DNA of 64,000 nt. It comes from an uncultured Gammaproteobacteria bacterium. Lineage in GTDB: Bacteria; Patescibacteriota; Microgenomatia; UBA8517. The notes under the pieces are model-generated. The model did no database searches. It was not told where the DNA came from and worked only from the letters and a program-made list of their open reading frames with translations. Positions 26,047 to 64,000 of the stretch are shown in pieces. The stretch covers positions 345,575-409,574 of the forward strand of contig CAZIMC010000001.1 of assembly GCA_964540475.1 (NCBI GenBank). Direction: 5' to 3'. The stretch's first letter is position 1. Each line of letters starts with the position of its first letter. The position numbers were made by a program, and so were the translations under genes.

Positions 26047-27186
26047 ATGGACAAAGTGGTAATCGTAATGCCAGCCTATAAGGAAGCTGAAAATATTGGC
26101 CCAATGATAGAGGAACTTGTTGGCAAAGAGTTCCCCAAAATAGACAATGCAGATATGCATTTGCTAGTGGTAAATGATCTACCCCCTGATGGATCAGCCG
26201 ATGACGGCACAGGAGAGATCGTCAAAAAGGCTATGGAAAAATACAAAAATCTCCACATTTTGGAGGATAAGAAACAGGGGTTGGGGTGGGCATATATTCG
26301 CGGTTTCAGGTATGCCATGGAGAAATTAAATGCCGATGCTGTAATGGAAATGGATGCGGATTTCCAGCATCCTCCGAGGTTTGTTAAAGATATGGTCGCC
26401 GCGTATCTAGACGGTGCCGATTATGTAATAGGTTCAAGGTATATTAAAGGCGGTTCCGTTCCTGCCGAATGGGCTTTCAGTCGTAAAGCGATAAGTTACT
26501 TTGGTAATTTATTCATCAGATTGGTTTTGACTAAACCCGGTCTGCACGATTTAACAACTGGTTTTAGATTAACAAGGGTTAAGGGGGTATTAGAAAAAAT
26601 AGATTTAGAAAATTTGATGGAACCCCACCTCTTTGCACACAAAGTGGATCTTTTATATCAAAGCGTCAAAAATGCCAAAAAGGTTACCGAAGTTCCTTTG
26701 GAGTTTGCCGCAAGGACAAAGGAAAAATCAAAGTTTAACCCTAAAGAAATGATTGGAACTTTCAAGGTGGCAATTATTTTGGGTATCAGAGACAAAAAAA
26801 GGTTTATTAAGTTTGGTATAGTAGGAACTAGCGGATATTTGGTAACGGCGTTCTCGATTCATTTTCTTGCAAGGACACCACTTCCTGAATGGGCGATTTG
26901 GGCAACCGCTACTGAGCTTGCAATCATCAATAATTTTACTTTCAACAATATCTGGACGTTTAGAGATGCAGAAATAAAGGGGTTTTGGCACCTTGTACAG
27001 AAATTCTTGCAATTTAACTTAACTTCAGCTGGCGCGCTTGTAATTCAGACTGTGGCAGGTACTATTGGTGTTTATTTTCTGGGACCTCAGTACAGGCAAT
27101 TAATCTTACCCTTCGTAACAGTTGGGCTGGTAATGCCTTATAACTACTTAATGTACAATCTGGTTATCTGGAGAACAAAGCTTTAA
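26047..27186 (+). CDS. Polyprenyl-phosphate sugar synthase: DPM1/GtrB-like GT2 fused to a GtrA-like 4-TM domain
   Basis: The N-terminal GT2 has 'VIVMPAYKEAENI' and the DPM1-type 'EMDADFQHPP'. The C-terminal ~120 aa form four TMs ('KFGIVGTSGYLVTAFSIHFLA...NNFTFNNIWTF') typical of GtrA-family proteins. Confidence 0.7.
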   Translation: MDKVVIVMPAYKEAENIGPMIEELVGKEFPKIDNADMHLLVVNDLPPDGSADDGTGEIVKKAMEKYKNLHILEDKKQGLGWAYIRGFRYAMEKLNADAVMEMDADFQHPPRFVKDMVAAYLDGADYVIGSRYIKGGSVPAEWAFSRKAISYFGNLFIRLVLTKPGLHDLTTGFRLTRVKGVLEKIDLENLMEPHLFAHKVDLLYQSVKNAKKVTEVPLEFAARTKEKSKFNPKEMIGTFKVAIILGIRDKKRFIKFGIVGTSGYLVTAFSIHFLARTPLPEWAIWATATELAIINNFTFNNIWTFRDAEIKGFWHLVQKFLQFNLTSAGALVIQTVAGTIGVYFLGPQYRQLILPFVTVGLVMPYNYLMYNLVIWRTKL

Positions 27187-27602
27187 GTTCTCACTAATAC
27201 TGGTCGAAACTTATAACCATATATTAAAGGTCCTTTGTCTTTCTCGCCCTGCGAAGGCTTGTTAAGTAATCTGGTTACCATTTCCACCTGCATACCAATT
27301 TTTAGTTCATCTGGGTCCACATCTGTGAGCTGAGCTGTTATTATCGGGCCTTCTTCAAGTTTAACCAGAGCACAATAATATGGTGCAAGCCCACCAAATC
27401 CTTCAGGTGCATCAAATACTTTTGTATAACTATATACTTCACCTCTACCAGAAAATTGATATTCCACCTTTGCACCTCCTCGGCATGATGGGCACACATC
27501 CCGCGGAGGGAAGATTTTTACTTCACAGTGCGGGCAGACTTCGCCCATTAGGCCATATCTGTATTTTTGCAGACGCCAATTTCGTGCAATTTCGTGCGAC
27601 AT
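27183..27602 (-). CDS. DUF35-like Zn-ribbon + OB-fold protein
   Basis: This 139-aa ORF has a C4 zinc ribbon 'CPHCEVKIFPPRDVCPSC' followed by an OB-fold-like region, as in the DUF35 acyl-CoA-associated proteins. No thiolase partner lies adjacent. Confidence 0.45.
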   Translation of the reverse strand: MSHEIARNWRLQKYRYGLMGEVCPHCEVKIFPPRDVCPSCRGGAKVEYQFSGRGEVYSYTKVFDAPEGFGGLAPYYCALVKLEEGPIITAQLTDVDPDELKIGMQVEMVTRLLNKPSQGEKDKGPLIYGYKFRPVLVRT

Positions 27603-27644
27603 CTATATATTAGTCGTAATTCAATGAAGAATACCCACGCGCTA

Positions 27645-28805
27645 TTAAAGAAATGCCGACCAGTCGGAGATTGGCATTACATTTTGTGTGATAAATGAAA
27701 GACTGAATAGGTATATTGGAATAAGTAATACAATCATTATGTATTTAAATTCTTTTCTAGTTAATGCATCAGAGTAACCCAAAATCAAAAATGGAGTAAT
27801 GGGCAGAGCGTACCTAACAATGTCTCTGTGCGAGACGAAAAGCAACGATATAAAGAAAATAATGGTAAACCAGGCAATATTGTGCATACCTTTTTGTATT
27901 AGCTTTATTATTCCAAATATTGCAATCAGATATACGAAGATAATTTCCTCCAACCAAAAAGTGCCTACCCAGGTGGCAGAATAGTTAAAGATCTGAAACG
28001 GCGGGAAAAACAGATGAATGTTATCACCTGATTTAAAGTAGACAAAAAAGTCGTTATAAGCTAGCTTGTACACGTAAAATACTCCTAATAGCGAAAGCGG
28101 AATCAGAAGCAAGGGGATTGCTTTGGGTAAATTAATATTTTTAACTAGCTTATTGATGGTTGTGTGGGCAATATCTTTTAAATGCGGAAACACAAGTGCT
28201 AACGCGAAGGCTATAAACAGTAATATTCCAGGTGACTTGGTGAATTGCGCTGCTGCTCCAAATAAACCCGCAAGCAAGTAGTTTTTTCGGTTAAAATAGT
28301 AAACAGCAGCCAGTATAGCAGCAATGAATAGTGTTTCAGCTGATCCAACTGATCTGACTACAAGCCATCTGGCTGGAAGTACGCTGAAGATGAAAGTTAG
28401 CCACAGAGCCTTCTCCGAGTCCAAATAATCTGAAGCTAATTTGTAAAAGAAATATATAGAAACGATTGAAAATATTGCAGTAACTGTTAATAAACCATAA
28501 GGGTACCCTGTTAGCGGAGAGATTAGCCTTACAAGAAACGGATAGAGTGGAAAGTGAGCAGAATAATACTCGTTACTTAAGGGGAAAGGGTAATTTTCCT
28601 GAATAGCTTGCGGGTTATACAAAGTTTTGGCAACCACCAAAAAGAGGGGACCATCATAATTTGCCACAATTGTTGCCATGCCGTTAGTAGCAAGTGGAAT
28701 TTGCCAAAACGCAGGTAACCTAAGAATAAATGGGGTCCACAGTAGAAAAGTGGGAATGAGTGCGAAAACAGAGATAACAATGAGAATTTTAAGACGTGTA
28801 AGCAT
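27645..28805 (-). CDS. Polytopic membrane protein (about 11 TM), putative GT-C-type glycosyltransferase
   Basis: This 386-aa ORF is highly hydrophobic with aromatic-rich loops ('YPFPLSNEYYSAHFPLYPFLVRL'). No family-specific motif is recognised. Confidence 0.4.
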   Translation of the reverse strand: MLTRLKILIVISVFALIPTFLLWTPFILRLPAFWQIPLATNGMATIVANYDGPLFLVVAKTLYNPQAIQENYPFPLSNEYYSAHFPLYPFLVRLISPLTGYPYGLLTVTAIFSIVSIYFFYKLASDYLDSEKALWLTFIFSVLPARWLVVRSVGSAETLFIAAILAAVYYFNRKNYLLAGLFGAAAQFTKSPGILLFIAFALALVFPHLKDIAHTTINKLVKNINLPKAIPLLLIPLSLLGVFYVYKLAYNDFFVYFKSGDNIHLFFPPFQIFNYSATWVGTFWLEEIIFVYLIAIFGIIKLIQKGMHNIAWFTIIFFISLLFVSHRDIVRYALPITPFLILGYSDALTRKEFKYIMIVLLIPIYLFSLSFITQNVMPISDWSAFL

Positions 28806-28882: not shown

Positions 28883-29590
28883 ATGCATTTAATTGACAAG
28901 CTTTCTGTATTTTTTCCGGCATATAACGAAGAGGCAAATCTAGAACGGACAGTCAAAAAGGCAGTTGAAGTCTTAAACAAAGTTGCCAAGGAGTGGGAAA
29001 TAATAATTGTTAATGATGGATCGACTGATAAAACAGGCGAGGTTGCACAAAATCTTGCTGAAAGCAATAAACAGATTAAGATAGTAACGCACAACCCTAA
29101 CAGAGGTTACGGAGCGGCATTTAAATCAGGACTTTATGCTGCAAAATACCCTTGGGTAACCTTTACAGATTCAGACGGACAATTCAATTTTTCAGAAATT
29201 ACAAATTTCCTGCAAAAGCAAAAAGGCACTGATTCCGATATGGTGATAGGCTACTATTTGGACCGTAAAGTTTCGCTTGGTAAAAAAATCACTAGCAAGA
29301 TGTGGGAATATTTAGTTTTCTTTTTATTTGGATTGAAAGTTCGGGATATAGATTGTGGATTCAAATTAATTCGCAAAAAAGTGATTGATACTATACCTAG
29401 GCTGGAATCTGAGAGAGGGGCATTTATATCGAGCGAATTTTTAATAAAAGCTAAGCGGGCGGGATTTAAGATTGTGGAAATTGGCGTAACCCACTATCCC
29501 AGAAAAGCTGGAGAAGGAACTGGACGCAAATTAAACGTTATAATTAAGAGCTTTATGGATCTATTTAGGTTGTGGAAGAAGCTGAGATAA
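28883..29590 (+). CDS. DPM1/GtrB/ArnC-like GT2 polyprenyl-phosphate glycosyltransferase
   Basis: It has 'VFFPAYNEEANL', 'IIIVNDGSTDKT', 'FTDSDGQFN' (DxD) and 'RDIDCGFKLIRKKV'. A GT-C gene lies immediately downstream. Confidence 0.7.
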   Translation: MHLIDKLSVFFPAYNEEANLERTVKKAVEVLNKVAKEWEIIIVNDGSTDKTGEVAQNLAESNKQIKIVTHNPNRGYGAAFKSGLYAAKYPWVTFTDSDGQFNFSEITNFLQKQKGTDSDMVIGYYLDRKVSLGKKITSKMWEYLVFFLFGLKVRDIDCGFKLIRKKVIDTIPRLESERGAFISSEFLIKAKRAGFKIVEIGVTHYPRKAGEGTGRKLNVIIKSFMDLFRLWKKLR

Positions 29591-31218
29591 ATTCTCAATG
29601 TACAAATTTTAATAAATCTTCAATGCTACGAATTTCAGCAATCAAAGAATGGATTAAGTCCCACAAGCTTGAGTTTCTAATTTTGACTCTGACACTACTT
29701 CTGGGGGCATTTTTAAGACTTTATAGAATTGACGAATACATGACTTTTCTTGGGGACGAGGGTAGAGACGCAATTATTGTAAGACGTTTTCTAACTCAAG
29801 GAGACTTAATGTTTGTGGGGCCTGGTACTTCAATTGGAAATATGTATCTTGGGCCACTTTACTACTACATGATGGCCCCAGCACTTTTACTGGCCAATTT
29901 TTCACCTGTTGGTCCTGCTGTAATGGTTGCACTACTTAATACCATAACTATATTTTTAGTCTGGTATGTTGCTCGAAAATGGTTTCCATCGCAAGGCCGG
30001 GCTCAAATTAATATTCCCGCATTAACGGGTGCTTTTCTTTATGCGATTTCAACAACCGTAGTAATATTTTCCCGATCCTCATGGAATCCAAACATAATGC
30101 CATTTTTTGCTCTCCTGTCAATTTATTCTATATGGAAGGTTTACAAAGAAAGAAAATACACTTGGCTAATTGTACTTGGGCTTTCGTTTGCATTTGTATT
30201 GCAATCACACTATCTGGGGCTACTTCTTATGCCACCACTCTTTATTTTTTACATTTTGACTATGAGAGATTTTGTATCGTTTAGGAATTTGAATTTAGAC
30301 TTTGCAAATAAACCAGACTTACGAAAGCTTTTGCAACAAACAACAGTTGGCTTATTACTATTTTTAGTACTAATGTCCCCACTCGTCGCTTTTGATTTCA
30401 GACATGATTTCCGAAATTTTAGAGGTATGATGGAATTTATCACAGGTTCAAAAGAAAATTATTCCCCGTCGCTTGAAAGCACATTATCTAAAATTTTACC
30501 GATGTCTAAGAGTGTGATAACAAGGCTGCTTGCTGCCAGAGATAAGACTCTTGGGATGCCGTTGTCTCTAGTTCTTTTAATCGGGGGCTTTATAGCGCTT
30601 CTCAAAAAAAAGAATAACGAAATTCTCCTATTACTTACTTGGCTTCTTTTTGGAAGCGTTGGTCTAGCTCTTCTTAGGCAGGAAGTATATGATCATTATT
30701 TTGGGTTTTTGTATCCTGTACCTTTTCTTTTATTGGCCGCTATTTTAAGCAAGATTAAAGATATTCAATTTCAAAAGCTATTTAGCGCACTTTCTGTAAT
30801 TATACTTACCCTTGCTGTAATAAAAGAATCGCCCATAAAAGACACGCCGGATAGGCAACTCGCAAGAAGTATAATAATTGCTGAGAAAATAGCAGAAGAA
30901 GCAAAGGGAGAAAGATTTAATCTAGCAACTATATCAGAAACAACCAATCGGGATACTTACCAGTATTGGCTAGAGCTTTGGGGTGAGCCAGTCGTTGATA
31001 CAGACCAGCTTAATCCTAAATTTACGGTCACAGATCAGTTATTTGTGGTCTGTGATAAACCGAGAGAGCTATGCAACCCAACGCATGATCCCTCTGCGTG
31101 GATAACCAATTTCGGTTGGAGTATAATTACTGACTCTTGGGAGATTGATGGCCGAACTATCTTCAAACTTGCCCACAGTGAGCAGTGGCTAAGAATGCGA
31201 GACAATAATGAATTATAG
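29572..31218 (+). CDS. ArnT/PMT (GT39/GT83)-like GT-C membrane glycosyltransferase
   Basis: This 548-aa ORF has about 11 TMs. The first extracytoplasmic loop carries 'FLGDEGRDAIIVRRF' (the DE motif of PMT_2-type GT-C enzymes). It has a C-terminal soluble domain. Confidence 0.6.
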   Translation: MEEAEINSQCTNFNKSSMLRISAIKEWIKSHKLEFLILTLTLLLGAFLRLYRIDEYMTFLGDEGRDAIIVRRFLTQGDLMFVGPGTSIGNMYLGPLYYYMMAPALLLANFSPVGPAVMVALLNTITIFLVWYVARKWFPSQGRAQINIPALTGAFLYAISTTVVIFSRSSWNPNIMPFFALLSIYSIWKVYKERKYTWLIVLGLSFAFVLQSHYLGLLLMPPLFIFYILTMRDFVSFRNLNLDFANKPDLRKLLQQTTVGLLLFLVLMSPLVAFDFRHDFRNFRGMMEFITGSKENYSPSLESTLSKILPMSKSVITRLLAARDKTLGMPLSLVLLIGGFIALLKKKNNEILLLLTWLLFGSVGLALLRQEVYDHYFGFLYPVPFLLLAAILSKIKDIQFQKLFSALSVIILTLAVIKESPIKDTPDRQLARSIIIAEKIAEEAKGERFNLATISETTNRDTYQYWLELWGEPVVDTDQLNPKFTVTDQLFVVCDKPRELCNPTHDPSAWITNFGWSIITDSWEIDGRTIFKLAHSEQWLRMRDNNEL

Positions 31219-32194
31219 TCAGTCTAAACAAATTCTTCAGGAGATTAAAAAGGCAAAAAGAATTCTCACAAATATACACAGGAGTAGTGACCCGGATTCT
31301 GTAGCCAGCGCATTGAGCCTTAAGGCGATAATTGAAACTATATTCAAAAAGGAAGTAACGGTTATAGCTGTTGATAATTCATATCAAGGTTATAAATATA
31401 TTTCTGGTACAGAGTGTGTCAGGGTGATAGAACCCTTAGAGTTCAATTTTTCAGAATATGACCTTTTTATTATTGTAGACTGCGAAATGCTGCAGCAAGC
31501 AGGAATATCTGCCGACAACGTATCTGATATAACCGTAATAAATATTGATCATCATCCAAAGAACAACATTAGAGGAAAACATAATTTGCTTGATAAGGCA
31601 GCCAGTTCCACTTCGGAAATTGTATATTTACTGAATAAGGATTGGCGGGTCAATATTAACAAGGAGTTAGCCACTACATTACTGGCCGGGATAATGGGTG
31701 ACACTGGTATATTTACATATGTAAACACCAAACCCAGAACCCTTAGCATTTCAAGTGAGTTGATAGAATCTGGTGCAGATCACCCTTATGTAGTTTACAA
31801 AATGACCCAATTTAACAGTTTAAACCTATTAAAATTGTGGGGAAGTATGCTGGATAAACTAGAAGTTGATACTAAGTATAATTTTGCCTGGTCTGCGTTG
31901 CCTTTTGAGGTATACAGTAAGTACAATTCAGCAATCAGTCCCAGTAAGTCTTTTTCTAACTTAATTATCAGGACTGTTGAAGGAACCAATTTTGGTATCT
32001 CAATGGTAGAAAAGGAAAAAAAGGTTTTGCATATAAGTATTAGATCTAGAGTTGAAGATTTTGATATTTCTCCTATAGCCAGGGAATTGGGCGGAGGCGG
32101 TCATAAAGCAGCATCAGGTGCGAGTGTTGCAGGCTTACCCTTTGAAAAGGCTGTCGCTAAAGTTCTTCGAACAGCAAGAAAATTCGCAAAATAA
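31208..32194 (+). CDS. DHH/DHHA1 phosphoesterase (NrnA-like nanoRNase/pAp phosphatase)
   Basis: The DHH motif is 'VINIDHHPKNN', there is a 'DCEM' acidic cluster, and the DHHA1 'GGGGHKAASG' motif lies near the C-terminus. Confidence 0.65.
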   Translation: MNYSQSKQILQEIKKAKRILTNIHRSSDPDSVASALSLKAIIETIFKKEVTVIAVDNSYQGYKYISGTECVRVIEPLEFNFSEYDLFIIVDCEMLQQAGISADNVSDITVINIDHHPKNNIRGKHNLLDKAASSTSEIVYLLNKDWRVNINKELATTLLAGIMGDTGIFTYVNTKPRTLSISSELIESGADHPYVVYKMTQFNSLNLLKLWGSMLDKLEVDTKYNFAWSALPFEVYSKYNSAISPSKSFSNLIIRTVEGTNFGISMVEKEKKVLHISIRSRVEDFDISPIARELGGGGHKAASGASVAGLPFEKAVAKVLRTARKFAK

Positions 32195-32242: not shown

Positions 32243-35200
32243 TTGCTTTGTGTTAAACTTTGTAAAGTACGTATGATGTTTAAGCGTTTGCGACAACTAC
32301 TTTTGAGTAAAAACACCATATTGATAATTATATTAACCCTGTTGGTTATATGGGCAGGGAAGGGCATCTTTAAATATAATGTTTTCAGTACACATGACGG
32401 AAATCACCACATTGCCAGATGTTATGACGCAGTCCAAACAATAAAGGAGGGGCATTTTCCGTTAAGATGGGCGGGAAGTCTTAATTACGGTTGCGGTGTG
32501 CCTATTTATAATTTCTTTTACCCACTGCTTTACTATCTTGTTATTATTCTCGAAGCTATATCTGGTAGGATAATATTTTCACTTAAAGTTATATATTTCT
32601 TATCACTTCTTATTTCGACGATATTTTTCTACCTCTGGATGAAAGTTGAGACAGGCAGAAAAAGCGCAGCATTTGCTTCGTCTCTGCTTTACCTATTTGC
32701 CCCATACCGGTTTTCACTGATATTTGTCAGGGGGTCGCCAGAATTTTTAGCTTATGCCTTGTTCCCGGTGGTTTTGTATATTTATTCACTTTTCTTCAAG
32801 GCTGAAAATAGGCGGACAAAGTTACTATTAGCCTTCATGGCAGTCTTAAGCGGTGGGGCATTGGCAATTTCGCATAATTTTACCGTTCTTTTCCTGATGC
32901 CAATACTTCTACTATATTTAATTGTAAAAATATTAAATACAAGAGACCCGGAGTGGGCACTTGCTATTTTTAGTTTTATCAGTAGCTTCACTCTAAGTGC
33001 ATTTTTTATTCTGCCGGCAGTCGTAGAGAAAAAATTTACTAAACTAGGGTCTTTAGATATTGTCAACTATAAAGAACACTTCCCGACTTTATGGCAATTA
33101 ATTCGCTCTAAGTGGGACTACTTCTATTCTTCACCAGGCGTTGAAAATGATGGAATGTCTTTTATGCTGGGATATGCACAATGGGTAGTACTTGCCGTAT
33201 CAACGACTTTCCTTGTAGTTAGTTTTGTTAAACATAGGAGTAGACTGAAAGCATTTATTTTCAAAAACGCCAGTGTATTGGCTTCACTTACCCTATCGTT
33301 ACTAAGCGTATTTATGATGTTACCTGTGTCCGAACCCTTGTGGGAAGTTTTACCATTTATTTCTGACATTCAGTTCCCGTGGCGTTTATTGGGTATTGCA
33401 ACATTCTTTATTAGTGTGTTATTCGGTTTCCTCCTTACAAGTATAAAAAATAAAAAAGTTTACTGGCTAATCCTTGTTATTGTGTCGATTTTGGCAATTT
33501 ATGGTAATAAAAATCACATACTTCCCCAACCAGTCTCGGTTGAAGATTTATACATGTATAGCGATTTTGATAAGTTGCACTATCACAGGTATACGACTAC
33601 AACTTTGGGTGATGACATTATTGCGCCATCCGCGCCGAGTGCTTGCTATTATTCCAGCGAAAAGGTTTATTGGGAAGATAGCTCACCCCTTGATCACGAA
33701 GTGTTAAGTTCCGGCAATACTTTCGCGGATATTAAAATTAATATTAATGAACCACCAGCTGAACGAAGCGTGGTATTACACCTCTCGTATTTCCCCAATA
33801 CCTTCGATGTGAACGTAAATGGAATTAAAATCGATTACCGGGATTGTCAAGGGTTGGTGTGTTTTAACCCCGACATATTAAGAGAAGGTACTAATTTCAT
33901 ATCATGGGGTGTTAAGCAAACTCCGATACAAAATATAGGAAATGTAATCACACTAATAACATTGGTAGGGTGGTTTGTATTCGTGATAGTGTTTTACAAC
34001 AAGAACAGCAAATTCACCAGGAAAGATTTAGCTATATTTCTAACAATATTTTGCACCCTAATTGTTTTTATCTTTTTAAGATTTACTAACATACATCAAA
34101 GAATTAGTTTTGGTTGGGATCAGGAGAGAGATGCAGTGGCGGCAACCGAGATACTACGTGGAAATTTTACTTTGATTGGCCCACAAGCCTTGGGGCCTGA
34201 AGGATTTTTCTTGCCGCCATATTTTTACTACTTTCTTTCTCCGTTTTACTTTATTACCAGTGGAAATCCACTAGCGATGATACTCTTTTTGGCTGCCTAT
34301 AATCTTACTTTCTTTTCTCTAAGTTTTATTGTAATCAAAAGATTATTCGGTTTGTACCCCGCTCTGTTTTTATTGGCTTTCTGGGCAGTTAACCCAAGAA
34401 TTGTTCAAATGGATACCACCTCTTGGAATCCTCTCTTAATTCCTTTGTTTGTGATACTTTTGTTCTATTTGTATTACTCATACTATATTAAAAACAAGCT
34501 TCAGACTTTATTGTTGATAGGAATAATGTATGGAATTGGCTTGGGTATGCATATACAGTTTTTGTTATTATTTCCATTTGTTATACCCCTGGTCCAGGCG
34601 ATATTAAAAACTTCACTTAAGCCGAGGCTTAAAAGAGCAGCCTCATTGCTTTTTGGTTTTATGCTCACACTCTTGCCGCTTGTAATATTTGATATTCGAA
34701 ATAATTTTCTAAACCTGAATTTAATGTTAGGATTTTTATCTAAAAATTCTCAAAGTAGCGGATATCCGTTTCTTCAAACTTTCGACAGATTCTTTTACAG
34801 TCTTACGGGTTTATATTCGATACCTGGTCTGGGAATAATTTCCTATATACTGGGCTTGCTTTTTATTATTTTTATAAGATATAAGATTACTCAGAAAACT
34901 TTTGAAAAGAAATTTTTTGAAGGATTATCGTATGTGTGGGGGTTAACGCCTTTCTATTTTTTGATTTATCGTGGCAGTGTTTCTGAATATTACTTCAATT
35001 ATTTAATACCAGTATTTTTAGTTGCATTAGCTTTTGCAGCAGGCAGGATTTATCAATATTTGGCAATAAGAAAGATGTCGTTTTTTATGGTACTAGTAGT
35101 CCCTGTGCTTTTATTCTGGCTTTTGAGAAGTTATGGTGACTTAAAGCCCCACGCCTTAAGCCTTTTCTTTAAAGACAAAGCGATAAGTTTTTTGTCAACA

Positions 35201-56312: not shown

Positions 56313-57969
56313 CCAGCTAATTACGGTTATATTATTAGGAATAATATCGATATCCATTTTTGTCAGATTCTATAAATTAGGAAGCTATCCGACTGGTCTG
56401 AACGTGGATGAGGTTGCATTTGGATATAATGCCTATTCGATTCTTGAAACAGGTAGAGATGAAAATGGGAACTTTATGCCTTTGTTATTTGAGTCCTATG
56501 GTGATTACAAGCCCCCCGTATATGTCTACCTAACTGTTTTGCCAGTTAAAATATTTGGATTAAATGAGTTTTCTGTACGCTTTATGTCTGCAATACTTGG
56601 GGTTGCAACGGTATTTGTGTCCTACTTTTTCTTTACTGAATTGACAGAAAACAAAAGAACAGGGTTGTTGGCTTCTTTTTTGTTAGCAATATCGCCATGG
56701 CATGTATTTTATTCACGATTGGGAATGGAGGCGCAGCCGGCCAACTTCCTGGTTTTTACGGGAATGTACTTTTTATACCGGCTTTCGCGTAATGGTGGAA
56801 TAATTAATGCATTTATTGCTGCCTTATTAATAGTAGCATCCATGTATACCTATCATTCAGAGAAGCTTTTTGCCCCGCTCATTGTAATGGCATTTTTGTT
56901 AATTAGTTTCAAAAAGTTGGTGAAATTCAAAAAAGACATTTTAGTCTTTCTAGTTCTCTGCGTAATGCTTTCTGCTCCATTAATAATTAATTTTATTTTT
57001 GGTAATGATAGTGCGCGGGCAGAAACACAGTTTATGACAAAGGACCCAGCATTTGAGAGATTCATTTTTTCGTCATTACCCGAAGCAAACGCGTGGATGG
57101 TGGCCCTAAGTAACAAATATATATTAATGTTTTACTATGCTGTTCGAAAATTTCTTTCATTTTTTGATCCTCAGTTTATATTTTCAAATGGTCTGAATTT
57201 AACCAAAGATGGCACATTAGGCTTGGGAATTGTGTACCTGTTTGAACTGCCCCTAGTTGTCTTGGGTATATATTCATTAATATACAAAAAATATAAGGAT
57301 AAGTTTTTTATTGGCATTTGGATATTATTAGGATTGATACCCGCATCCATAACTATTGGTGAATACCACACAATTCGTACACTTATGTTGGCTCCAATTG
57401 CTAGCTTAATATCAGCGGTGGGTGCGATGCACTTAGTGGAGCTGCTTGGTAAGCAAAAGAGAATATTTACTATATCTCTTTATGTCCTTTTTACAATTTT
57501 TGCAAGCTGGAATTTGATATATGCCGCAGTTGTATACTTTAAATATTATCCCCATCAAAGAGGCGAGTGGTACATGGAAGGAACAAGAGAAATAATAAGT
57601 TATGTCATTGAAAATTATGACAAATATGAAGAAGTAGTTTTTGATCCATCCCGTGGCCTGACTGGGCCATACACAATTGGTGTTCCGCACGAATACTTTT
57701 TATTCTATTCTAAATTTGATCCAGAAAAGTACCACCAACTTACAAAATTTTCTAACGAAGGAGCATTCACGTTTGATAAATTTACGGTAAGACACATAGA
57801 TTGGCAAACTGAAGACCCCAAAAAAAACATTTTGTACGTTGGAAGCCCTTGGGGGCTACCTGACGAATCAAATGAAAACGCCGAAGTCTTAAAAAAGGTT
57901 TATTTAACCAACGGAGGACTGGCGTTGTTGGCAGTGAGGACAAAGACGGATGATACCAGTAATAAGTAG
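56290..57969 (+). CDS. ArnT/PMT-like GT-C membrane glycosyltransferase (family A)
   Basis: 'NVDEVAFGYNAYSILETGRDENGNFMPLLFESYGDYKPPVYVYL' is the first-loop DE motif. The track ORF begins at 56239, and the internal Met at 56290 (MSKQKISNQ) reduces the overlap with the upstream gene. Confidence 0.6.
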   Translation: MSKQKISNQLITVILLGIISISIFVRFYKLGSYPTGLNVDEVAFGYNAYSILETGRDENGNFMPLLFESYGDYKPPVYVYLTVLPVKIFGLNEFSVRFMSAILGVATVFVSYFFFTELTENKRTGLLASFLLAISPWHVFYSRLGMEAQPANFLVFTGMYFLYRLSRNGGIINAFIAALLIVASMYTYHSEKLFAPLIVMAFLLISFKKLVKFKKDILVFLVLCVMLSAPLIINFIFGNDSARAETQFMTKDPAFERFIFSSLPEANAWMVALSNKYILMFYYAVRKFLSFFDPQFIFSNGLNLTKDGTLGLGIVYLFELPLVVLGIYSLIYKKYKDKFFIGIWILLGLIPASITIGEYHTIRTLMLAPIASLISAVGAMHLVELLGKQKRIFTISLYVLFTIFASWNLIYAAVVYFKYYPHQRGEWYMEGTREIISYVIENYDKYEEVVFDPSRGLTGPYTIGVPHEYFLFYSKFDPEKYHQLTKFSNEGAFTFDKFTVRHIDWQTEDPKKNILYVGSPWGLPDESNENAEVLKKVYLTNGGLALLAVRTKTDDTSNK

Positions 57970-58732: not shown

Positions 58733-58737
58733 CTTTC

Positions 58738-59184
58738 CTACTTTCCTAAAGCTGCAATCCTTGCTTCATTCTGATCGAAGAAGTTATTTAGATAGTCAAT
58801 ATTGGTTTTCAGGTAAAGCTCATTCATTAACGCCCTAGCCTGTAGCTGGCGAATCCTTGCTTTTTCCAGGTGTTTGTAAGCGAGCTTAACATGCCCTTTT
58901 TCTTTCATTATAGTAGCCTCGGTGATCCTTTTTGATGATATGGTCAAGTGCCAATATGCCCAGTCTTCCTCACCCAGTACAAATAGTGAGGTGAAGCTTT
59001 CTCTGCCGACTTTAAGTAGATGCAAGGGTGAAAGAGACACCGCGCCTAATCCATGAACGACTGCTGTGTAGATAAGTATTAAAAACATAGCGATAACGCC
59101 AAATTTCCTTTTGTGTAGCATGGCCATTCTGTCCATGTTAACATAGGTTATCATGTTATTCACCATACTTCTGGCCTTATTCAC
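58738..59184 (-). CDS. Hypothetical small membrane protein
   Basis: This 148-aa minus-strand ORF has one TM ('FGVIAMFLILIYTAVVHGLGAV') and a helical C-terminus. It overlaps the start of the next + strand gene by about 30 nt. Confidence 0.3.
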   Translation of the reverse strand: MNKARSMVNNMITYVNMDRMAMLHKRKFGVIAMFLILIYTAVVHGLGAVSLSPLHLLKVGRESFTSLFVLGEEDWAYWHLTISSKRITEATIMKEKGHVKLAYKHLEKARIRQLQARALMNELYLKTNIDYLNNFFDQNEARIAALGK

Positions 59185-60712
59185 CTCAGTTAGGGCTTAT
59201 GGGCTTCTTGAATATCCAATTTACTTAGATGAAGGTGTTTATATCTGGTGGGCATACCTTTTCAATATTGATAGTAACTTTGCCTATAATTCTATGCAGG
59301 ATGGGAAAACGCCACTTTTTATTTGGCTGACTGCAGCACTTCATGAATATGTAAAACCCTACATTCTCTCGGGGAGATTGATTTCAGTTTTCTCAGGCGC
59401 AATAAGTGCAATTGCCTGGCTGTCAATCTTCAAGCTGGCTTTTAAAAAATCCAGTATATTTTGGCCGTTTGTAATATTTATAGTTGCCCCGTACGCGTTA
59501 TTTGTTGAGAGGATGGCGTTTGTTGACAGCCTTCTTGTTGCTTGCGGAAGTCTGTCTATCCTTTTCTTTTACGCTAGCAGCAGATTTGTGGATTCACGGC
59601 GATATAGGCTTTCTTTATTAGCAGCTTCTGTAGCTGGAGTGTTTTTAGGGCTTTCCTACTTGACCAAAACTTCCGCAGTAGCTTTTTTGTACGCAACCTT
59701 TGCAGTCGGTACGCTTTGGGTTATAAGAAAGCTATGTTTAAGAAAGTATCTGGAGTCAGCTTTTTTGGTGGTTAACACAATTATCTTGTATTTGGTGTAC
59801 AACGAGTTTCTGGTGGCTCTAAGGGTTGCTGCACATCGATTTGATAATGTCGGAGTAAAAGAAGCTGGATTGACGTATACGTTGCCTGAAATATTGTCTA
59901 GTTTAACTACTGCCGCAGGGAGTAAGATTTACCTATCTTCCTTGAATGTGGTTTCTCAATATTTTGTGGTTTATTTGAGCAGTTTTTTGCTACTTTTTTT
60001 GTTGGGTGGGGTCTTGATAGTGAGATACCATAGGAAATCCGCCTGGATTCTGCTTTACATGCTAGTGATTTTTGTTGGCACTTTTCTTTCAGCCAAAGTT
60101 ACTGCTACTCGCTATTTTTATCCGGTAGTTCCTTCGATAATTATTATTGCCGGCTTTGGGGCTGGGTGGCTTTGGGAAAGAAGGGACAAAGCGCTGAGAG
60201 TAATGCTAATTGCTGCATTCTTTCTACCTGTCTACCAAGCGGCTCGGGTTGTTGTCGATCCAGTAAATGCAACTCACGCTTCTCATGAGCAAAACTTCGT
60301 GTCTTCGGATCTTACCGCGATTGGGCTAAGCGAAGTAATACAAATTTTACATGATACTGCTGATCAGTCAGTTGTGGGTGTAGTTGGTGTTTGGGGGATA
60401 GGAGATGGGGCAGCACTTACTTTGAATGAGGCGGGAATGGAGGCGTACCCTGTAAACCTTTTCGTATTTGAAGGTCCAGGTCGCGAAGGTAGTTGTACGT
60501 TTGAAAAGAAAAAGATTGGTGATGTCTGTTATCAACTGACTATCGACCGAATAATTGATAGCACAAAACCTAATAAGTATTTGTATATCGTACCCAGGAA
60601 TGTTGACTTATCAGTTTTAAGGCAGCTTATTGATTTTGAGCTGGTAAGGGAGTTTGAGAGACCTATGAGTGATGCACGCGTTTACTTGCTAAGGCTGCAC
60701 GGAACTCCTTAA
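59153..60712 (+). CDS. ArnT/PMT-like GT-C membrane glycosyltransferase
   Basis: 'IYLDEGVYIWWAYLF...MQDGKTPLFIWLT' parallels 'IFADEAIYIRWAQ...SDGKQPLFMWVM' of the ORF at 36211. It is 519 aa with a C-terminal soluble domain. Confidence 0.55.
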   Translation: MLFTILLALFTSVRAYGLLEYPIYLDEGVYIWWAYLFNIDSNFAYNSMQDGKTPLFIWLTAALHEYVKPYILSGRLISVFSGAISAIAWLSIFKLAFKKSSIFWPFVIFIVAPYALFVERMAFVDSLLVACGSLSILFFYASSRFVDSRRYRLSLLAASVAGVFLGLSYLTKTSAVAFLYATFAVGTLWVIRKLCLRKYLESAFLVVNTIILYLVYNEFLVALRVAAHRFDNVGVKEAGLTYTLPEILSSLTTAAGSKIYLSSLNVVSQYFVVYLSSFLLLFLLGGVLIVRYHRKSAWILLYMLVIFVGTFLSAKVTATRYFYPVVPSIIIIAGFGAGWLWERRDKALRVMLIAAFFLPVYQAARVVVDPVNATHASHEQNFVSSDLTAIGLSEVIQILHDTADQSVVGVVGVWGIGDGAALTLNEAGMEAYPVNLFVFEGPGREGSCTFEKKKIGDVCYQLTIDRIIDSTKPNKYLYIVPRNVDLSVLRQLIDFELVREFERPMSDARVYLLRLHGTP

Positions 60713-61832
60713 TAGCAACAAGAAAAGGTAAAGCAGCAAAAAAGATTAGACTAGCACTTTGCCCGTAAGACGACCAGTATCCGCTGCCGACAAAGTTTAT
60801 ATATTTATTAATAATAAGCAAAAAATGGGAGACGAAGATTAAACATAGTGAGGTCATTTTTAGTTTGGCAAAAGGTAGTGCGAGGTATATCCAAGTAAAA
60901 TACCATGCTTGTGAACTTGCATACTTTAATCCCAGAGAGAAAAGCAATATCAGGACAGCAAATTTGAAAAATACCTCTTTCTTCTCTATGATAAAAAACA
61001 CAGGGAAAAGCAGTAAGCTTATAAATTTTGTGAGGACAGACGTCATAAAAATAATAAATGCAGCTAGCTTTTTGTTTCTCAAAAACAGAAAGTAGGATAA
61101 TACAAACAGTCCGATCATTAGTGTTTCGTTGTGAGCATTTACTAAAAGTTCAAATATAAGTAGGGGATTAAAAAACCACAATCCGAAAACCAATCTATTA
61201 TTTAATATTCTAAAGAGCAGAAATCCTGTTACAAAAAAGACGATTCCGTTTAGAAGTTTAGTTGCAAGAAGTACGGTTATCAGTTTACCCGCTGAAAAGA
61301 TGGCAAGAGGTATGGTTGAATAAATTAAAGCAACCGGTCCGTAGACATACGGCTTATGTGTCCAAAGAACAAAGTTCAACCAGGAGTCGTGCTCACGAAG
61401 TACTTCCGGTATGACGATGTAAGGGTTTAGTTTATACACCCAGGCCATTTTGGCAGAGAAGACATAGCTGTAAATGTCACTGGACAAAAATGGATATGAC
61501 AGGCTGCCGACAATGGTAACTATCGCTGCTGCAATAAACATCCATTTCATTGAAGGTTTTTTTGAAAGGAGCGCGTAAGCCTGGAGGGCAAACAAGACGG
61601 TTATTAATGCGATAAATAACCGCCTGAACAAATGCCGGTTGTAGATCATAAAGGCGCGGTAAGTATCAATCGCAAGAACCTGAGGATGTGATTCTGATAT
61701 GACTGTCATCAGTCCGTGATCAAACCAGGCGTAGGAGAACACTAAAAGAGCTAAAGAGACAAAGGATACGAAAATGACAAATAGCATCGTATTTATAATG
61801 TTAGACTCTATCAGTTTACTTGACAATGGCAA
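60663..61832 (-). CDS. Polytopic membrane protein, GT87/DUF2029-like putative mannosyltransferase
   Basis: This 389-aa ORF has about 11 TMs. The loop 'SSDIYSYVFSAKMAWVYKLNPY' resembles the conserved Asp-containing first loop of PimE/GT87-type enzymes. It shows convergent 3' overlap with 59153-60712. Confidence 0.45.
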   Translation of the reverse strand: MPLSSKLIESNIINTMLFVIFVSFVSLALLVFSYAWFDHGLMTVISESHPQVLAIDTYRAFMIYNRHLFRRLFIALITVLFALQAYALLSKKPSMKWMFIAAAIVTIVGSLSYPFLSSDIYSYVFSAKMAWVYKLNPYIVIPEVLREHDSWLNFVLWTHKPYVYGPVALIYSTIPLAIFSAGKLITVLLATKLLNGIVFFVTGFLLFRILNNRLVFGLWFFNPLLIFELLVNAHNETLMIGLFVLSYFLFLRNKKLAAFIIFMTSVLTKFISLLLFPVFFIIEKKEVFFKFAVLILLFSLGLKYASSQAWYFTWIYLALPFAKLKMTSLCLIFVSHFLLIINKYINFVGSGYWSSYGQSASLIFFAALPFLVAIKEFRAALASKRVHHS

Positions 61833-61854
61833 ACTGCTACCATTCTTTTAGGTA

Positions 61855-63498
61855 ATGAAAAGGGCCCATTTACTTCTGTTTTTGATCGTACTGGCCGCAT
61901 TCTTTTTGAGATTTTGGCGGGTAGTTGAGATTCCCCCCTCACTTAATTGGGATGAGGTATCAATTGGATATAACGCCTATTCAATACTAGAGACTGGTAG
62001 GGACGAATGGGGTGAGTTTATGCCACTTCACTTTAGGTCTTTTGGTGAATACAAACTACCTGCGCAAATATATGCTTCCATTCCGGGAATATTTGTTTTT
62101 GGCTTAAACGAATTTGGCTTAAGAATTACACCCGTATTTTACGGAACCCTAACGGTTTTTTTACTCTATTTTCTTGCTAAAAAAATTACAAAAAATACAG
62201 CGGTTGGTTTATTATCTGCATTTTTCCTTGCTGTATCCCCCTGGCATATTCAGCTAACTAGAGCATCCTTTGAATCTTCTTTTTCTGTTTTTTGGGTGGC
62301 TTTGGGGTTGCTCCTACTTGTTAGGGGTTTTGAAAAGCCTAAGTACTGGATACTTTCTGCGCTACCTTTTGCAATTGCTGTTTATACGTATAATAGTGCT
62401 CGCGTGTTTGTGCCACTTTTTGCGGCGATAACTTTTTTAGTATACAGGAAAGAATTTTTAAAATTCAAAAAAGAAACGCTCTTTACAATATTATTTTTTG
62501 GAATACTCCTTTTACCACTTGTCCCATTCGTTTTAAGCGGTGAGGCTGGCGCACGTTATAAACTAGTAAGTATTACTGATGAAGCGGGGCTTGTACCCCG
62601 CATTAATGAAAGAAGAGGGGCAACGAACTTACCTGCACCTTTGCCAAGACTTATACATAACAAAGTAACTTATGTTTCATTTTATTTTGCTAAAAATTAT
62701 TTGGCCCACTTTTCGCCGGACTTTCTTTTTGTAAGCGGTGCCGGACACAGTCAGCATCATGTGCAAAATATTGGACAGCTATACCTTATCCAAGCACCCT
62801 TTTTAATAATTGGGCTACTGGCATTGCGTAAAACCAATAATAAATTTTTAGCTCTTATTGTTGGTTGGATCTTGTTAACTTTTGTACCAGTGGCGGCCAC
62901 TCAAGACAGCATTCCTAACGCCTTAAGAACTGTCATTGCCGCCCCTGCATATCAAGTATTAACAGCGCTCGGCATTGTATTTATTGCCGAAAAATATAAA
63001 GACAAGAAAAGCGTGTTGTATACCCTTTTCGGAATTGCCGCTATTTTATTTGCTTTTAGTTTTGCAAAGTATATAAATAATTTGTACTACAATTACCCGA
63101 TAAAATACTCCCGTGACTGGCAGTATGGCAACAAACAAGTAGTTCAGTTAATTAAAGAGCATTACAACGATTATGATCTGATTGTATATACCCGACACTA
63201 CGGCGAGCCACATATATTTACGTTATTTTATCTGGGGTGGGACCCGGAAATGTTACAGAAAGATTCCCAACTAGTTAGATATGAAACACACGACTGGGTG
63301 TGGGTCGAAAATTTTGATAAGTTTTATTTCCCCAATTTGTCCGACAAAGGTACGGGATATCTTGATATAGTAGCCCAAAACTCCGGGAAACGCATACTTT
63401 TTATCGGCAGACCTGGTGATTTTGGGAACGAGAAGAAATTATATGAGATAGACTTTTTAAATGGAGAACCTGCTTTTGAGTTAATAGAAGTACTATGA
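61855..63498 (+). CDS. ArnT/PMT-like GT-C membrane glycosyltransferase (family A)
   Basis: 'NWDEVSIGYNAYSILETGRDEWGEFMPLHFRSFGEYKLPAQIYA' is near-identical in pattern to the ORF at 56290. It is 547 aa. Confidence 0.6.
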   Translation: MKRAHLLLFLIVLAAFFLRFWRVVEIPPSLNWDEVSIGYNAYSILETGRDEWGEFMPLHFRSFGEYKLPAQIYASIPGIFVFGLNEFGLRITPVFYGTLTVFLLYFLAKKITKNTAVGLLSAFFLAVSPWHIQLTRASFESSFSVFWVALGLLLLVRGFEKPKYWILSALPFAIAVYTYNSARVFVPLFAAITFLVYRKEFLKFKKETLFTILFFGILLLPLVPFVLSGEAGARYKLVSITDEAGLVPRINERRGATNLPAPLPRLIHNKVTYVSFYFAKNYLAHFSPDFLFVSGAGHSQHHVQNIGQLYLIQAPFLIIGLLALRKTNNKFLALIVGWILLTFVPVAATQDSIPNALRTVIAAPAYQVLTALGIVFIAEKYKDKKSVLYTLFGIAAILFAFSFAKYINNLYYNYPIKYSRDWQYGNKQVVQLIKEHYNDYDLIVYTRHYGEPHIFTLFYLGWDPEMLQKDSQLVRYETHDWVWVENFDKFYFPNLSDKGTGYLDIVAQNSGKRILFIGRPGDFGNEKKLYEIDFLNGEPAFELIEVL

Positions 63499-64000
63499 GT
63501 AGGAAACTGATAATCGTTTTAATTATCGCACTTGCAACATTTGTCAGATTTTACAAGCTTTCAGAGGTGCCTCCTTCATATAGCTGGGACGAAGCGGCAA
63601 TAGGATACGATGCCTACTCGATAGCCCAAACCGGGAAAGACCAGTGGGGTGAGAAACTTCCTTTGGCATTCAAGTCTTTTGGTGAGTACAAACTACCCTT
63701 TCATATCTATACAACAGCAATAATTTATAAGCTGTTCGGATTTACTGTAGTTGGGGTAAGATTTGGCTCCGCAGTGTTAGGGGTAGTTAACGTCTATTTG
63801 TTGTATCTAATAGTCAAAAAGTGGACAGCTAACGTGAGGCTGTCGTTGGCTGCGAGTTTTTTTCTAGCCATATCCCCTTGGCATATCCAGTTTTCCAGGG
63901 TTAGTTGGGAAACTAATTATGCATTACTATTCTTTTTACTTGGGCTACTAAGTTTTATTGGCTTCGTTAAGTACAAGAAACGTTGGTATTTACTACTTTT
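63498..64000 (+). CDS. ArnT/PMT-like GT-C membrane glycosyltransferase (family A), 5' part; gene runs off the window end
   Basis: An ATGA overlap joins it to the upstream gene. 'SWDEAAIGYDAYSIAQTGKDQWGEKLPLAFKSFGEYKLPFHIYT' is the first-loop DE motif. Confidence 0.55.

Follow-up and report, generated by a model that had tools for sequence, protein, structure and literature searches.

Extracytoplasmic glycosylation in bacteria has been described for several three-component systems (PMC11127046), namely GtrA/GtrB/GtrC, CsbB/GtcA/YfhO, PgfS/PgfM1/PgfM2, GtrB/PgtC2, and a polyprenyl-phosphoribose synthase that acts with a MATE flippase and GT136. All of them follow the same logic: a GT2 glycosyltransferase (GT) forms a polyprenol-phosphate sugar, which is flipped and then transferred, on the outer side, by a GT-C enzyme to a glycan or to Ser/Thr-rich regions (PMC11127046, PMC12041528). 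GtrB together with a GT-C enzyme glycosylates Ser/Thr-rich disordered regions in streptococci (PMC12041528), and a single GT39 enzyme is required for all detectable protein glycosylation in Caldicellulosiruptor bescii (PMC6151902). Here, we analyzed a 64,000-nucleotide stretch of contig CAZIMC010000001.1 (assembly GCA_964540475.1, positions 345,575 to 409,574; hereafter, the window) from a Microgenomates bacterium of the candidate phyla radiation (CPR, or Patescibacteria), in which at least 42 kb, from position 21883 to beyond 64000, is given to sugar-transfer enzymes. Judged by homology, this region is very probably a native Microgenomates locus for extracytoplasmic glycosylation, acting mainly at the outer face of the cytoplasmic membrane and using polyprenol-phosphate sugars. 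Genes are designated below by their first coordinate.

Similar to the three-component systems, the window contains four candidate polyprenol-phosphate sugar synthases interleaved with GT-C genes. In contrast to the one or two GT-Cs per locus of those systems, it holds 16 GT-C genes of at least five subfamilies, and it has no stand-alone GtrA, one synthase instead bearing a DPMS/GtrA membrane domain. As in actinobacterial Ppm1/Pmt (GT39) and the C. bescii GT39, the products of 36211, 56239 and 61855 match PMT/PMT_2 and carry a D-E pair in loop 1, and Pro/Thr/Ser-rich linkers, the classical acceptors, are encoded nearby; unlike Ppm1/Pmt, the window has many paralogues rather than one, and the closest solved structure to the 61855 group in a profile search of the PDB was ArnT (5EZM, E 1.4e-07, over only about 160 residues) ahead of a PMT (Pmt4, E 0.005). 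Another likeness is to mycobacterial and corynebacterial PimE, MptA/B/C, EmbA/B/C and AftA-D and to streptococcal GacI/J/K/L, large GT-C sets that use polyprenol-phosphate sugars for envelope glycans of monoderm cells: the window, too, has GT87/MptA-like members, an rml operon, rhamnosyltransferase-like GT2s and a Wzx-like flippase. It differs from the mycobacterial assembly lines in lacking Emb- or Aft-type Pfam matches, in being one contiguous array rather than dispersed genes, and in belonging to a genome of about 1 Mb.

The combination of a DPMS homologue of archaeal/eukaryotic type with PMT-, PIG-M/GT87-, PIG-V- and oligosaccharyltransferase (OST)-like proteins in one bacterial locus also resembles the dolichyl-phosphate (Dol-P)-sugar toolkit of the endoplasmic reticulum (ER) and archaea (DPMS, ALG3/9/12, PIG-M/V, PMT and STT3). 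However, the context here is bacterial, and the likeness holds at the family level and is not evidence of shared pathways. Each component is of a known kind; what is unusual is the scale (at least 16 GT-Cs, drawn from five or more subfamilies, in one array of a genome of about 1 Mb), the conservation across a CPR class, and an OST-like family that is invisible to sequence profiles. A literature search returned no description of this array, or of the OST-like protein, in CPR bacteria.

Composition of the glycosyltransferase array

From 26047 to the window end, 16 GT-C-like polytopic membrane genes were found, corresponding to 17 GT-C modules because 32243 is a tandem fusion (Table 1); 13 of these calls are solid and three (27645, 55224 and 60663) are tentative. 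Ten membrane genes reached the Pfam cutoffs for PMT, PMT_2 or PTPS_related, six of them for PMT or PMT_2 (27645, 29572, 36211, 53356, 56239 and 61855) and four for PTPS_related (PF10131; the N half of 32243, the C part of 43836, 46237 and 47891). PF10131 is presumably a member of the Pfam GT-C clan, and here it is the fold search alone that ties it to the superfamily; PDB sequence-profile searches with the PTPS_related and 51547 families gave nothing useful. The C half of 32243, 59153, 55224 and the partial 63495 were assigned by BLAST or hhalign, 51547 and tentatively 60663 as GT87-like, and 49552 by predicted fold. The subfamilies thus represented number at least five: GT39/ArnT-like, PTPS_related, GT87/PIG-M-like, PIG-V-like and OST-like. 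For 51547, the window copy stays below the GT87 cutoff, whereas 10 of its 11 orthologues match GT87 (best E-value 5.5e-08) and two of 11 match PIG-M. In several relatives, separate ORFs (open reading frames) match the GT2 and GT-C parts of 43836 (e.g., L009:2935-3717 and L006:1426-3138). The protein of 55224, with one remote homologue in a database of 5.8 billion sequences, appears to be a fast-evolving or degenerating paralogue without the canonical D-E loop.

The polytopic proteins assigned by family profile or fold carry acidic residues in the first extracytoplasmic loop. The D-E pair after the first transmembrane (TM) helix is invariant in an alignment of seven proteins (29572, 36211, 53356, 56239, 59153, 61855 and 63495), as is a downstream Arg. 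The same place is occupied by D-D in 43836, 46237 and 47891 and by HD in the N half of 32243, and invariant Asp residues are D23 in the 51547 family and D140 in the 49552 family. Lys/Arg residues before the first helix are predicted, by the positive-inside rule, to place these acidic loops outside the cell. A second signature, GYNAYSI.ETG.D..G...P..F.S.G[DE]YK.P, is found in 53356, 56239, 61855 and 63495. With scores above the PMT cutoff (PF02366, 22.7 bits) and the loop-1 D-E, 36211, 56239 and 61855 have the features of GT39 domains. An ArnT function of the 61855 group would be excluded because lipopolysaccharide and lipid A are absent from CPR bacteria (PMC10221324).

The donor-making enzymes that GT-Cs need appear to be present and interleaved with them: 26047 and three short GT2s (28883, 57989 and probably 35452), whose top or near-top NCBIfam matches are to polyprenyl-phosphate sugar synthases. 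The first, 26047, combines a GT2 domain with a C-terminal GtrA/DPMS TM domain and is homologous along its full length to a solved DPMS, that of Pyrococcus furiosus (5MLZ, E 1.3e-38, residues 3-377 against 24-374). For 28883, the top PDB matches were ArnC (2e-17) and GtrB (5EKP, 3.5e-16), and NCBIfam matches to ArnC (2.5e-22) and a Dol-P hexose transferase (1.7e-17) were both below cutoff; 35452 gave mixed NCBIfam matches, including ArnC (3e-12) and PgfS (1e-10). The product of 57989 can be aligned in full with PpgS and a haloarchaeal Dol-P hexose transferase (NCBIfam AglJ 1.3e-22, PpgS 5.8e-17 and Dol-P hexose transferase 6.6e-13, all below cutoff), and its gene is among the best conserved of the array, with copies at 64-73% identity in eight related loci. 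The Wzx/MOP-family flippase 37767 (NCBIfam MOP flippase 2e-40, below the equivalog cutoff) is followed by five cytoplasmic Leloir GTs, of which 40221 and 42934 are rhamnosyltransferase-like (TIGR01556, 7e-18 and 3.6e-11, below cutoff), which fits the rml operon.

Most of what a first-pass annotation, made from the letters of the window, had claimed about this content agrees with our results. Its ORFs and coordinates were as given, and its "about 17 polytopic membrane proteins, most GT-C-like" correspond to the 16 GT-C-like genes plus the flippase, which it had also named. The D-E motif that it reported in at least seven membrane proteins and the second signature in four were both recovered, and the Pfam classification of the membrane ORFs that it proposed gave the 10 genes listed above. 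The concern that most of these ORFs might be transporters was not borne out: profile, paralogy and fold searches led to GT-C families, and the one Wzx-type flippase is the only transporter among them. Its count of at least 11 soluble GTs was slightly too high, as Pfam gives 10 GT-A/GT-B genes, eight of them free-standing and soluble, with GT2 domains in 26047, 28883, 35452, 39313, 40221, 41131, 42934, 43836 (N-terminal domain) and 57989 and a GT4 domain in 41868 alone. The GtrA domain noted in 26047 is indeed present; it is not a separate flippase, however, being the membrane domain of a full-length DPMS-type synthase.

Table 1. Coordinates and assignments of features in the window (E-values and bit scores are from Pfam unless a different source is named)
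Coordinates	Strand	Assignment	Evidence or remarks
5404-6057	+	Envelope protein with Ser/Thr/Pro-rich linker; candidate acceptor	LytR_C
11397-12248	+	Envelope protein with Ser/Thr/Pro-rich linker; candidate acceptor	
13871-15172	+	Repeat protein	Beside candidate acceptors
15275-17500	+	Envelope protein with Ser/Thr/Pro-rich linker; candidate acceptor	
17497-18627	+	Repeat protein	Beside candidate acceptors
18617-19168	+	Sortase	Beside candidate acceptors
20102-21061	+	Envelope protein with Ser/Thr/Pro-rich linker; candidate acceptor	CAP domain
21883-22608	+	rmlA, dTDP-L-rhamnose synthesis	NTP_transferase 6e-52
22575-23681	+	rmlB, dTDP-L-rhamnose synthesis	GDP_Man_Dehyd/Epimerase 3e-68
23755-24336	+	rmlC, dTDP-L-rhamnose synthesis	dTDP_sugar_isom 7e-39
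24336-25271	+	rmlD, dTDP-L-rhamnose synthesis	RmlD_sub_bind 8e-37
26047-27186	+	DPMS-type polyprenol-phosphate sugar synthase, GT2 fused to GtrA/DPMS TM domain	GT2 1.7e-21; GtrA_DPMS_TM 2.6e-15; PDB match
27183-27602	-	DUF35/ChsH2-like OB-fold and zinc-ribbon protein, stand-alone	OB_ChsH2_C 7.7e-22; zf-ChsH2 4e-07
27645-28805	-	GT-C, PIG-V/PMT_2-like, 8 TM; tentative	PMT_2 27.4 bits (cutoff 26.1)
28883-29590	+	Short GT2, polyprenyl-phosphate sugar synthase-like (ArnC/GtrB/PgfS type)	GT2 7.8e-32
29572-31218	+	GT-C (PMT_2), GDEG motif after TM1	PMT_2 36.1 bits; DE aligned
31208-32194	+	DHH/DHHA1 phosphoesterase	DHH 3e-17; DHHA1 5e-07
32243-35434	+	Tandem double GT-C, 1063 aa, ~21 TM; N half PTPS_related-type, C half PMT_2-type	PTPS_related 41.7 bits; PMT_2 22.6 bits (sub-threshold); hhalign N half to 46237 family 100%, C half to 29572 97.8%
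35452-36204	+	Short GT2, possibly polyprenyl-phosphate sugar synthase	GT2 1.4e-24
36211-37713	+	GT-C, PMT/ArnT-like, ADEA motif	PMT_2 54.6 bits; PMT 40.3 bits
37767-39266	+	Wzx/MOP-family flippase, 13 TM helices	Polysacc_synt_3 5.9e-53, 180.5 bits
39313-40224	+	Cytoplasmic Leloir GT, GT2	Pfam
40221-41138	+	Cytoplasmic Leloir GT, GT2	Pfam
41131-41904	+	Cytoplasmic Leloir GT, GT2	Pfam
41868-42932	+	Cytoplasmic Leloir GT, GT4	Pfam
42934-43833	+	Cytoplasmic Leloir GT, GT2	Pfam
43836-46280	+	Fusion of GT2 domain (residues 1 to ~250) and PTPS_related GT-C module, QDD motif	GT2 1.2e-22; PTPS_related 1.1e-06; BLAST to 46237 2.5e-101
46237-47919	+	PTPS_related GT-C paralogue	HDD/SDD motif after TM1 (in this pair); C-terminal beta-domain, final TM
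47891-49552	+	PTPS_related GT-C paralogue	As 46237
49552-51537	+	Unannotated family, OST/DPY19-like GT-C fold	AlphaFold2, Foldseek
51547-52746	+	GT-C, GT87/PIG-M-like, 10 TM, invariant HPD after TM1	GT87 (PF09594) 17.4 bits (cutoff 25)
52743-53354	+	Small N-anchored protein, conserved extracytoplasmic domain of ~150 aa	Overlaps 51547 stop by 4 nt
53356-55227	+	GT39/ArnT-like GT-C paralogue	DE and second signature; PMT_2 42 bits
55224-56312	+	Divergent short GT-C-like membrane protein, 8-9 TM; tentative	Between 53356 and 56239; no Pfam match; hhalign 93.8% to 61855/GT39-like group
56239-57969	+	GT39/ArnT-like GT-C paralogue	DE and second signature; PMT_2 47.8 bits; PMT 44.9 bits
57989-58732	+	Short GT2, polyprenyl-phosphate sugar synthase-like	GT2 3.5e-19
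58738-59184	-	Doubtful 148-aa ORF, possibly non-coding	
59153-60712	+	GT-C, 36211 paralogue, LDEG motif	PMT_2 18.6 bits (sub-threshold); to 36211, BLAST 8e-22, hhalign 98.6%
60663-61832	-	Tentative GT87/MptA-like GT-C, 10 TM	TIGR03459 (MptA) 8.9e-06, far below cutoff; hhalign ~85% to 51547 family
61855-63498	+	GT39/ArnT-like GT-C	PMT 45.1 bits; PMT_2 43.7 bits
63495 to beyond 64000	+	Further GT39-like paralogue, partial	4-nt overlap with 61855 gene; cut by window end; 48% identity to 61855

Extent, conservation and origin of the locus

The array had originally been delimited as positions 26047-64000 and termed an island, and on both points our results led to a different view. The four enzymes of dTDP-rhamnose synthesis, RmlABCD, are recognizable by their characteristic domains and are encoded by mutually adjacent genes, and only trmD, on the opposite strand, lies between them and the array; the true upstream start of the cluster is thus rmlABCD at 21883. 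Downstream, the window ends within another GT39-like gene, and in relatives the cluster continues for at least 10 kb beyond the 61855 orthologue. In the closest relative (L001), this orthologue is followed by two PMT-like genes, an FAD oxidoreductase, a GT2, a GT4, a PIG-V-like GT-C and two GT2s, and in another (L002), by a short-chain dehydrogenase/reductase, a GT4, a PIG-V-like gene, a second MOP flippase, a GT2 and another PMT_2-like gene. The tight one-strand packing with overlaps that the first-pass annotation described was confirmed, with four clean 4-nt ATGA overlaps, several longer ones, and almost all genes on the plus strand; the minus-strand exceptions are 27183, 27645, 60663 and the doubtful 58738.

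GTDB species genomes were searched with the protein encoded at 61855-63498, which yielded 31 related loci. Every informative taxon title among them was that of a Woesebacteria, Daviesbacteria, Microgenomates or Patescibacteria metagenome-assembled genome (MAG), which places the window in a Microgenomates genome; the 61855 orthologues show 57-64% identity in at least 20 Microgenomates MAGs, and each locus contains 3-10 GT-C-like ORFs per 21.6 kb or less. Several loci from Woesebacteria and relatives have a common core order, consisting of 46237, 47891, 51547, 52743, the 49552 family, GT39s, 57989, 61855, two more GT39s and a GT2, and Daviesbacteria loci have the flanking GT2/GT4 block and the GT39 run in common. 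The density of paralogues, which had been called unusual, is far beyond chance and recurs with the array at the 31 loci. Orthologues in different genera show 43-64% identity, compared with 27-48% among the group-B paralogues of the window, and the duplications therefore predate the split of these genera. Because the paralogues are old and each has its own orthologue in other genera, they were kept as distinct specificities.

We considered whether the array could instead be a horizontally acquired, strain-variable island that, in the manner of O-antigen or capsule loci, generates surface antigen diversity under pressure from phages or hosts. Total GC content falls from about 0.42 to about 0.37 in the cluster, which would fit such an origin. 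However, GC at third codon positions (GC3) does not shift (0.352 upstream versus 0.355 in the cluster), and the dip is wholly in codon positions 1 and 2 and reflects the amino-acid composition of membrane proteins. Variation between genomes also speaks for acquisition: the 10-kb flanks searched at the 31 loci contain no counterpart of 55224, 59153, 60663 or 36211, and the copy number of GT39-like and 51547-like genes differs between genomes. The core order is nevertheless common to several loci across Woesebacteria and relatives, the orthologues are closer to each other than the paralogues are, tRNA and Rfam scans of the window were empty, and no integrase or other mobility genes were found in it. 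The unchanged GC3, the conservation in relatives, and the empty scans for tRNA, Rfam and mobility genes together indicate that the array is a native, conserved, vertically inherited locus, partly syntenic across Microgenomates, and that the word "island" is misleading. An acquired origin is very improbable and is largely refuted as an explanation of the core, and peripheral turnover of single paralogues is possible.

A few further features of the region were recorded. The gap at 58733-59152 (420 bp), the longest non-coding stretch of the array, may be an internal promoter region; only the doubtful minus-strand ORF 58738-59184 lies inside, for which Pfam and NCBIfam gave no match and the 31 related loci no counterpart. 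The first 21 kb of the window are occupied by housekeeping and envelope genes, whose products comprise SecA, a peptide release factor, FtsE/FtsX, an M23 peptidase, a sortase and secreted repeat proteins. At one related Woesebacteria locus (L010:17962-19497), one ORF carries a VKOR (vitamin K epoxide reductase) domain fused with a dihydroorotate dehydrogenase domain, a combination that suggests that pyrimidine synthesis and disulfide formation are coupled through quinones.

The OST-like family of 49552

The protein encoded by 49552 resembles STT3/AglB/PglB and the C-mannosyltransferase DPY19 in its predicted fold, its OST-type C-terminal core and its invariant first-loop Asp. Its AlphaFold2 model was confident (pLDDT 84.5, pTM 0.88), and the 14 significant Foldseek matches were all to DPY19, PglB, AglB, STT3 or AftA. 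Three additional TM helices lie at the N terminus of the protein, D140..H144 is invariant in its first external loop, and its C-terminal globular domain is AglB-like; a profile search with this domain gave a single PDB match (3vu0_A, the AglB-S2 domain; E 0.62, not significant alone). In this alignment, the invariant YVSAFSG of the family (from Y573) falls onto the WWDYG of AglB; LT[YH]P[YF] was dropped as the WWDYG replacement, because the HMM alignment puts YVSAFSG there. The catalytic candidates of the family are the invariant residues D140/H144/E150 in the first external loop, E251 in the GGES.FW loop and P364.W366..R377 in a later loop.

Unlike OSTs, this protein lacks the WWDYG motif, and neither STT3 (PF02516) nor any solved OST was matched significantly by sequence or profile. 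Neither Pfam nor NCBIfam matched it, 27 homologues were likewise without a Pfam hit at E<=10, the full-length family profile found no OST and nothing useful in the PDB, and hhalign gave no link to other families of the window. From its model, the protein is thus predicted to be a GT-C that belongs structurally with OST/DPY19 but does not pass the sequence-motif tests for OSTs. A database search returned 554 homologues at E<=1e-5, of which the few source-named matches among those listed were all "hypothetical protein" from Patescibacteria, and the family profile matched 1763 representative clusters at E<=0.001. The window copy shows 45-51% identity to the plus-strand type found in relatives and about 30% to the minus-strand type; an inversion of such genes in relatives was rejected, as two paralogue subtypes fit the opposite strand better. 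About one third of the homologues listed (e.g., P0010 and P0031, about 1150 aa) begin with an additional secreted domain (about 490 aa, with signal peptide), and some of them have a precomputed Pfam match to PF12979 that is likely sited in this domain. One of the long homologues is labelled Berkelbacteria and one Parcubacteria, so that the family reaches beyond Microgenomates.

These properties bear on the possibility that 49552 is a functional OST, for which the Wzx, GT2/GT4 and Rml block would build the lipid-linked oligosaccharide in an N-glycosylation-like en-bloc pathway with a non-canonical acceptor motif, the other GT-Cs trimming or extending the glycan outside in an ALG/PMT-like manner. 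Every significant structural match is to an OST, DPY19 or AftA, the only PDB match of the C-terminal profile is an OST domain with YVSAFSG placed onto WWDYG, the family is conserved in the array (20 ORFs across the 31 loci), and nothing else was found that could serve as ligase or transferase for a flipped oligosaccharide. On the other hand, WWDYG is not conserved, so that N-X-S/T recognition as in known OSTs is unlikely; no sequence link reached significance; and no initiating phosphoglycosyltransferase was recognized among the window ORFs of at least 100 aa. We therefore regard a functional OST as rather unlikely, and a similarly doubtful chance is given to the proposal that 49552 works like an en-bloc transferase with a different acceptor. 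A still more speculative proposal, which we consider improbable, is that the family is an unrecognized, divergent OST/DPY19 branch in several Patescibacteria lineages in which YVSAFSG takes the place of WWDYG and which moves the rhamnose-containing oligosaccharide, once flipped by Wzx, en bloc to an acceptor other than N-X-S/T. Together with the DPMS and the PMT-, PIG-M- and PIG-V-like GT-Cs, it would then form an "ER-like" surface protein glycosylation system that shapes the S-layer or pili in episymbiosis.

Proposed pathway, products and significance

The multi-step, diversified extracytoplasmic glycosylation of envelope polymers and/or proteins that the first-pass annotation proposed is supported by homology, with donor-making enzymes interleaved. 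In the pathway that we envisage, RmlABCD would make dTDP-rhamnose, and 26047, 28883, 57989 and probably 35452 would load monosaccharides onto polyprenol phosphate at the cytoplasmic face. The five soluble GT2/GT4 enzymes, two of them rhamnosyltransferase-like, adjoin the flippase and would act on that side, and Wzx, the DPMS membrane domain or the two together may flip lipid-linked mono- or oligosaccharides. Outside, the GT-C paralogues would each add a specific sugar or linkage, in sequence or on different acceptors, with 49552 as the best candidate for en-bloc transfer of a Wzx-flipped oligosaccharide. Likely acceptors are the Ser/Thr/Pro-rich linkers of secreted or anchored envelope proteins, four of which are encoded upstream, and the S-layer or a pilus.

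Several points weigh against the glycosylation locus as proposed. Its function is assigned by homology alone, and the donor sugars, acceptors and order of reactions proposed here are putative. Because all NCBIfam matches of the short GT2s to polyprenyl-phosphate sugar synthases fall below the equivalog cutoffs, their enzyme class is supported and their sugar is not. No initiating phosphoglycosyltransferase, Wzy polymerase or WaaL/PglL-type ligase was recognized among the window ORFs of at least 100 aa. The GT-C assignments of 55224, 60663 and 27645 are weak, and the AlphaFold2 model of 46237, built from only four paralogues, is of low confidence and backs a GT-C fold and nothing finer. The link between the array and the nearby Ser/Thr/Pro-rich proteins, finally, is suggested by proximity only.

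In the four candidate acceptor proteins, the linkers consist of 70-93% Ser, Thr and Pro over 30-aa windows. CPR cells have a monoderm envelope and bear an S-layer as well as pili (bioRxiv 10.1101/2020.05.14.094862). Because of these linkers nearby, the GtrB/GT-C and GT39 precedents, and the monoderm CPR cells with S-layer and pili, protein O-glycosylation is the leading reading. A rhamnose-containing wall glycan is equally plausible as a second product. Such a glycan, or a rhamnose-containing lipoglycan, would account just as well for the rml genes and the rhamnosyltransferase-like GT2s, and also for the GT-Cs of GT87/MptA-like and PIG-V-like type; the two readings are compatible.

It is also quite possible, at somewhat short of an even chance, that the main product is a protein-free envelope glycopolymer, such as a lipoglycan or a wall-linked rhamnose-rich polysaccharide, with the GT-Cs serving as an assembly line or adding side chains. 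PimE, MptA-C, Emb and Aft enzymes form the assembly line for mycobacterial lipomannan/lipoarabinomannan and arabinogalactan, and the number of GT-Cs in the array is about that of the whole Mycobacterium tuberculosis complement. GacI/GacK/GacL add the side chains of the group A carbohydrate in streptococci, where a Wzx-like protein flips a polyprenol-phosphate monosaccharide. The presence of rmlABCD with two rhamnosyltransferase-like GT2s and of GT87/MptA-like and PIG-V-like GT-Cs agrees with such a product; 27645 matches a cell-surface glycopolymer formation family (NF046093, E 7e-12, below cutoff), and a related ORF (L001:17923-19110) matches Mannosyl_trans2 (PIG-V) at 5.9e-11. The nearest solved relative of the largest paralogue group is, however, ArnT/PMT and not Emb/Aft, 49552 is most like the protein-modifying OST/DPY19, and the window showed neither an LCP-type ligase catalytic domain nor a polymer ABC exporter nor Wzy. 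A glycopolymer would moreover be compatible with the proposed glycosylation locus, both products being possible.

Among the proteins encoded upstream, 13871-15172, 15275-17500, 17497-18627 and 19224-19820 (minus strand) form a paralogous secreted family with repeats of the type NTGxN...RNTGGDV.I.TGDA and paired Cys residues. Two members have a C-terminal TM anchor, the genes cluster with the sortase, and no Pfam match was found; they could be a CPR-specific surface-layer or fibre family. In the overlapping ORF pair at 19224-19824, the minus strand is the real gene, having a signal peptide and the same repeats. In the membrane protein of 5404-6057, a Ser/Thr/Pro-rich segment lies immediately outside the TM helix and the C-terminal tail is rich in Ser, Thr and Ala, a layout similar to that of the disordered regions that are reported to be glycosylated in streptococcal LytR and PrsA.

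Three genes within the cluster do not encode GTs. Archaeal DUF35 protein scaffolds thiolase and HMG-CoA synthase in the mevalonate pathway, which would feed polyprenol carrier synthesis; the DUF35-like 27183 has no partner genes nearby. The phosphoesterase gene 31208 overlaps the preceding GT-C gene by 11 nt and appears to be co-transcribed with the glycosyltransferases. For the bitopic protein of 52743, neither Pfam nor NCBIfam gave a match and the database search returned one remote homologue; its alignment shows invariant QPG, NPxLxN, DG and DS motifs. Exact-protein look-ups of window genes, among them 36211 and SecA, gave no contig on record, and a 1-kb Logan contig from SRR12404947 was the only one that carried 52743. 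The 52743 gene comes after the GT87-like gene in many related loci (e.g., L002:3349-3948), and the product is a putative accessory subunit.

CPR bacteria have small, reduced genomes (about 1 Mb) and presumably live attached to host cells, so that the surface is where their biology happens; a related complete chromosome measures 820,589 bp. This lineage nevertheless keeps at least 42 kb for extracytoplasmic glycosylation; the full extent is probably above 50 kb, which would make up some 5% or more of such a genome. Because the same locus occurs in relatives, an elaborate surface sugar coat appears to be central to this group. The locus offers concrete enzymes, namely four lipid-sugar synthases, five GT-C subfamilies and one OST-like family with an altered acceptor motif, which, together with the nearby candidate acceptors, could open the CPR surface glycome to heterologous biochemistry and to glycoproteomics of enrichments. 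The OST-like family would also widen OST-like sequence space, which is of interest for glycoengineering.

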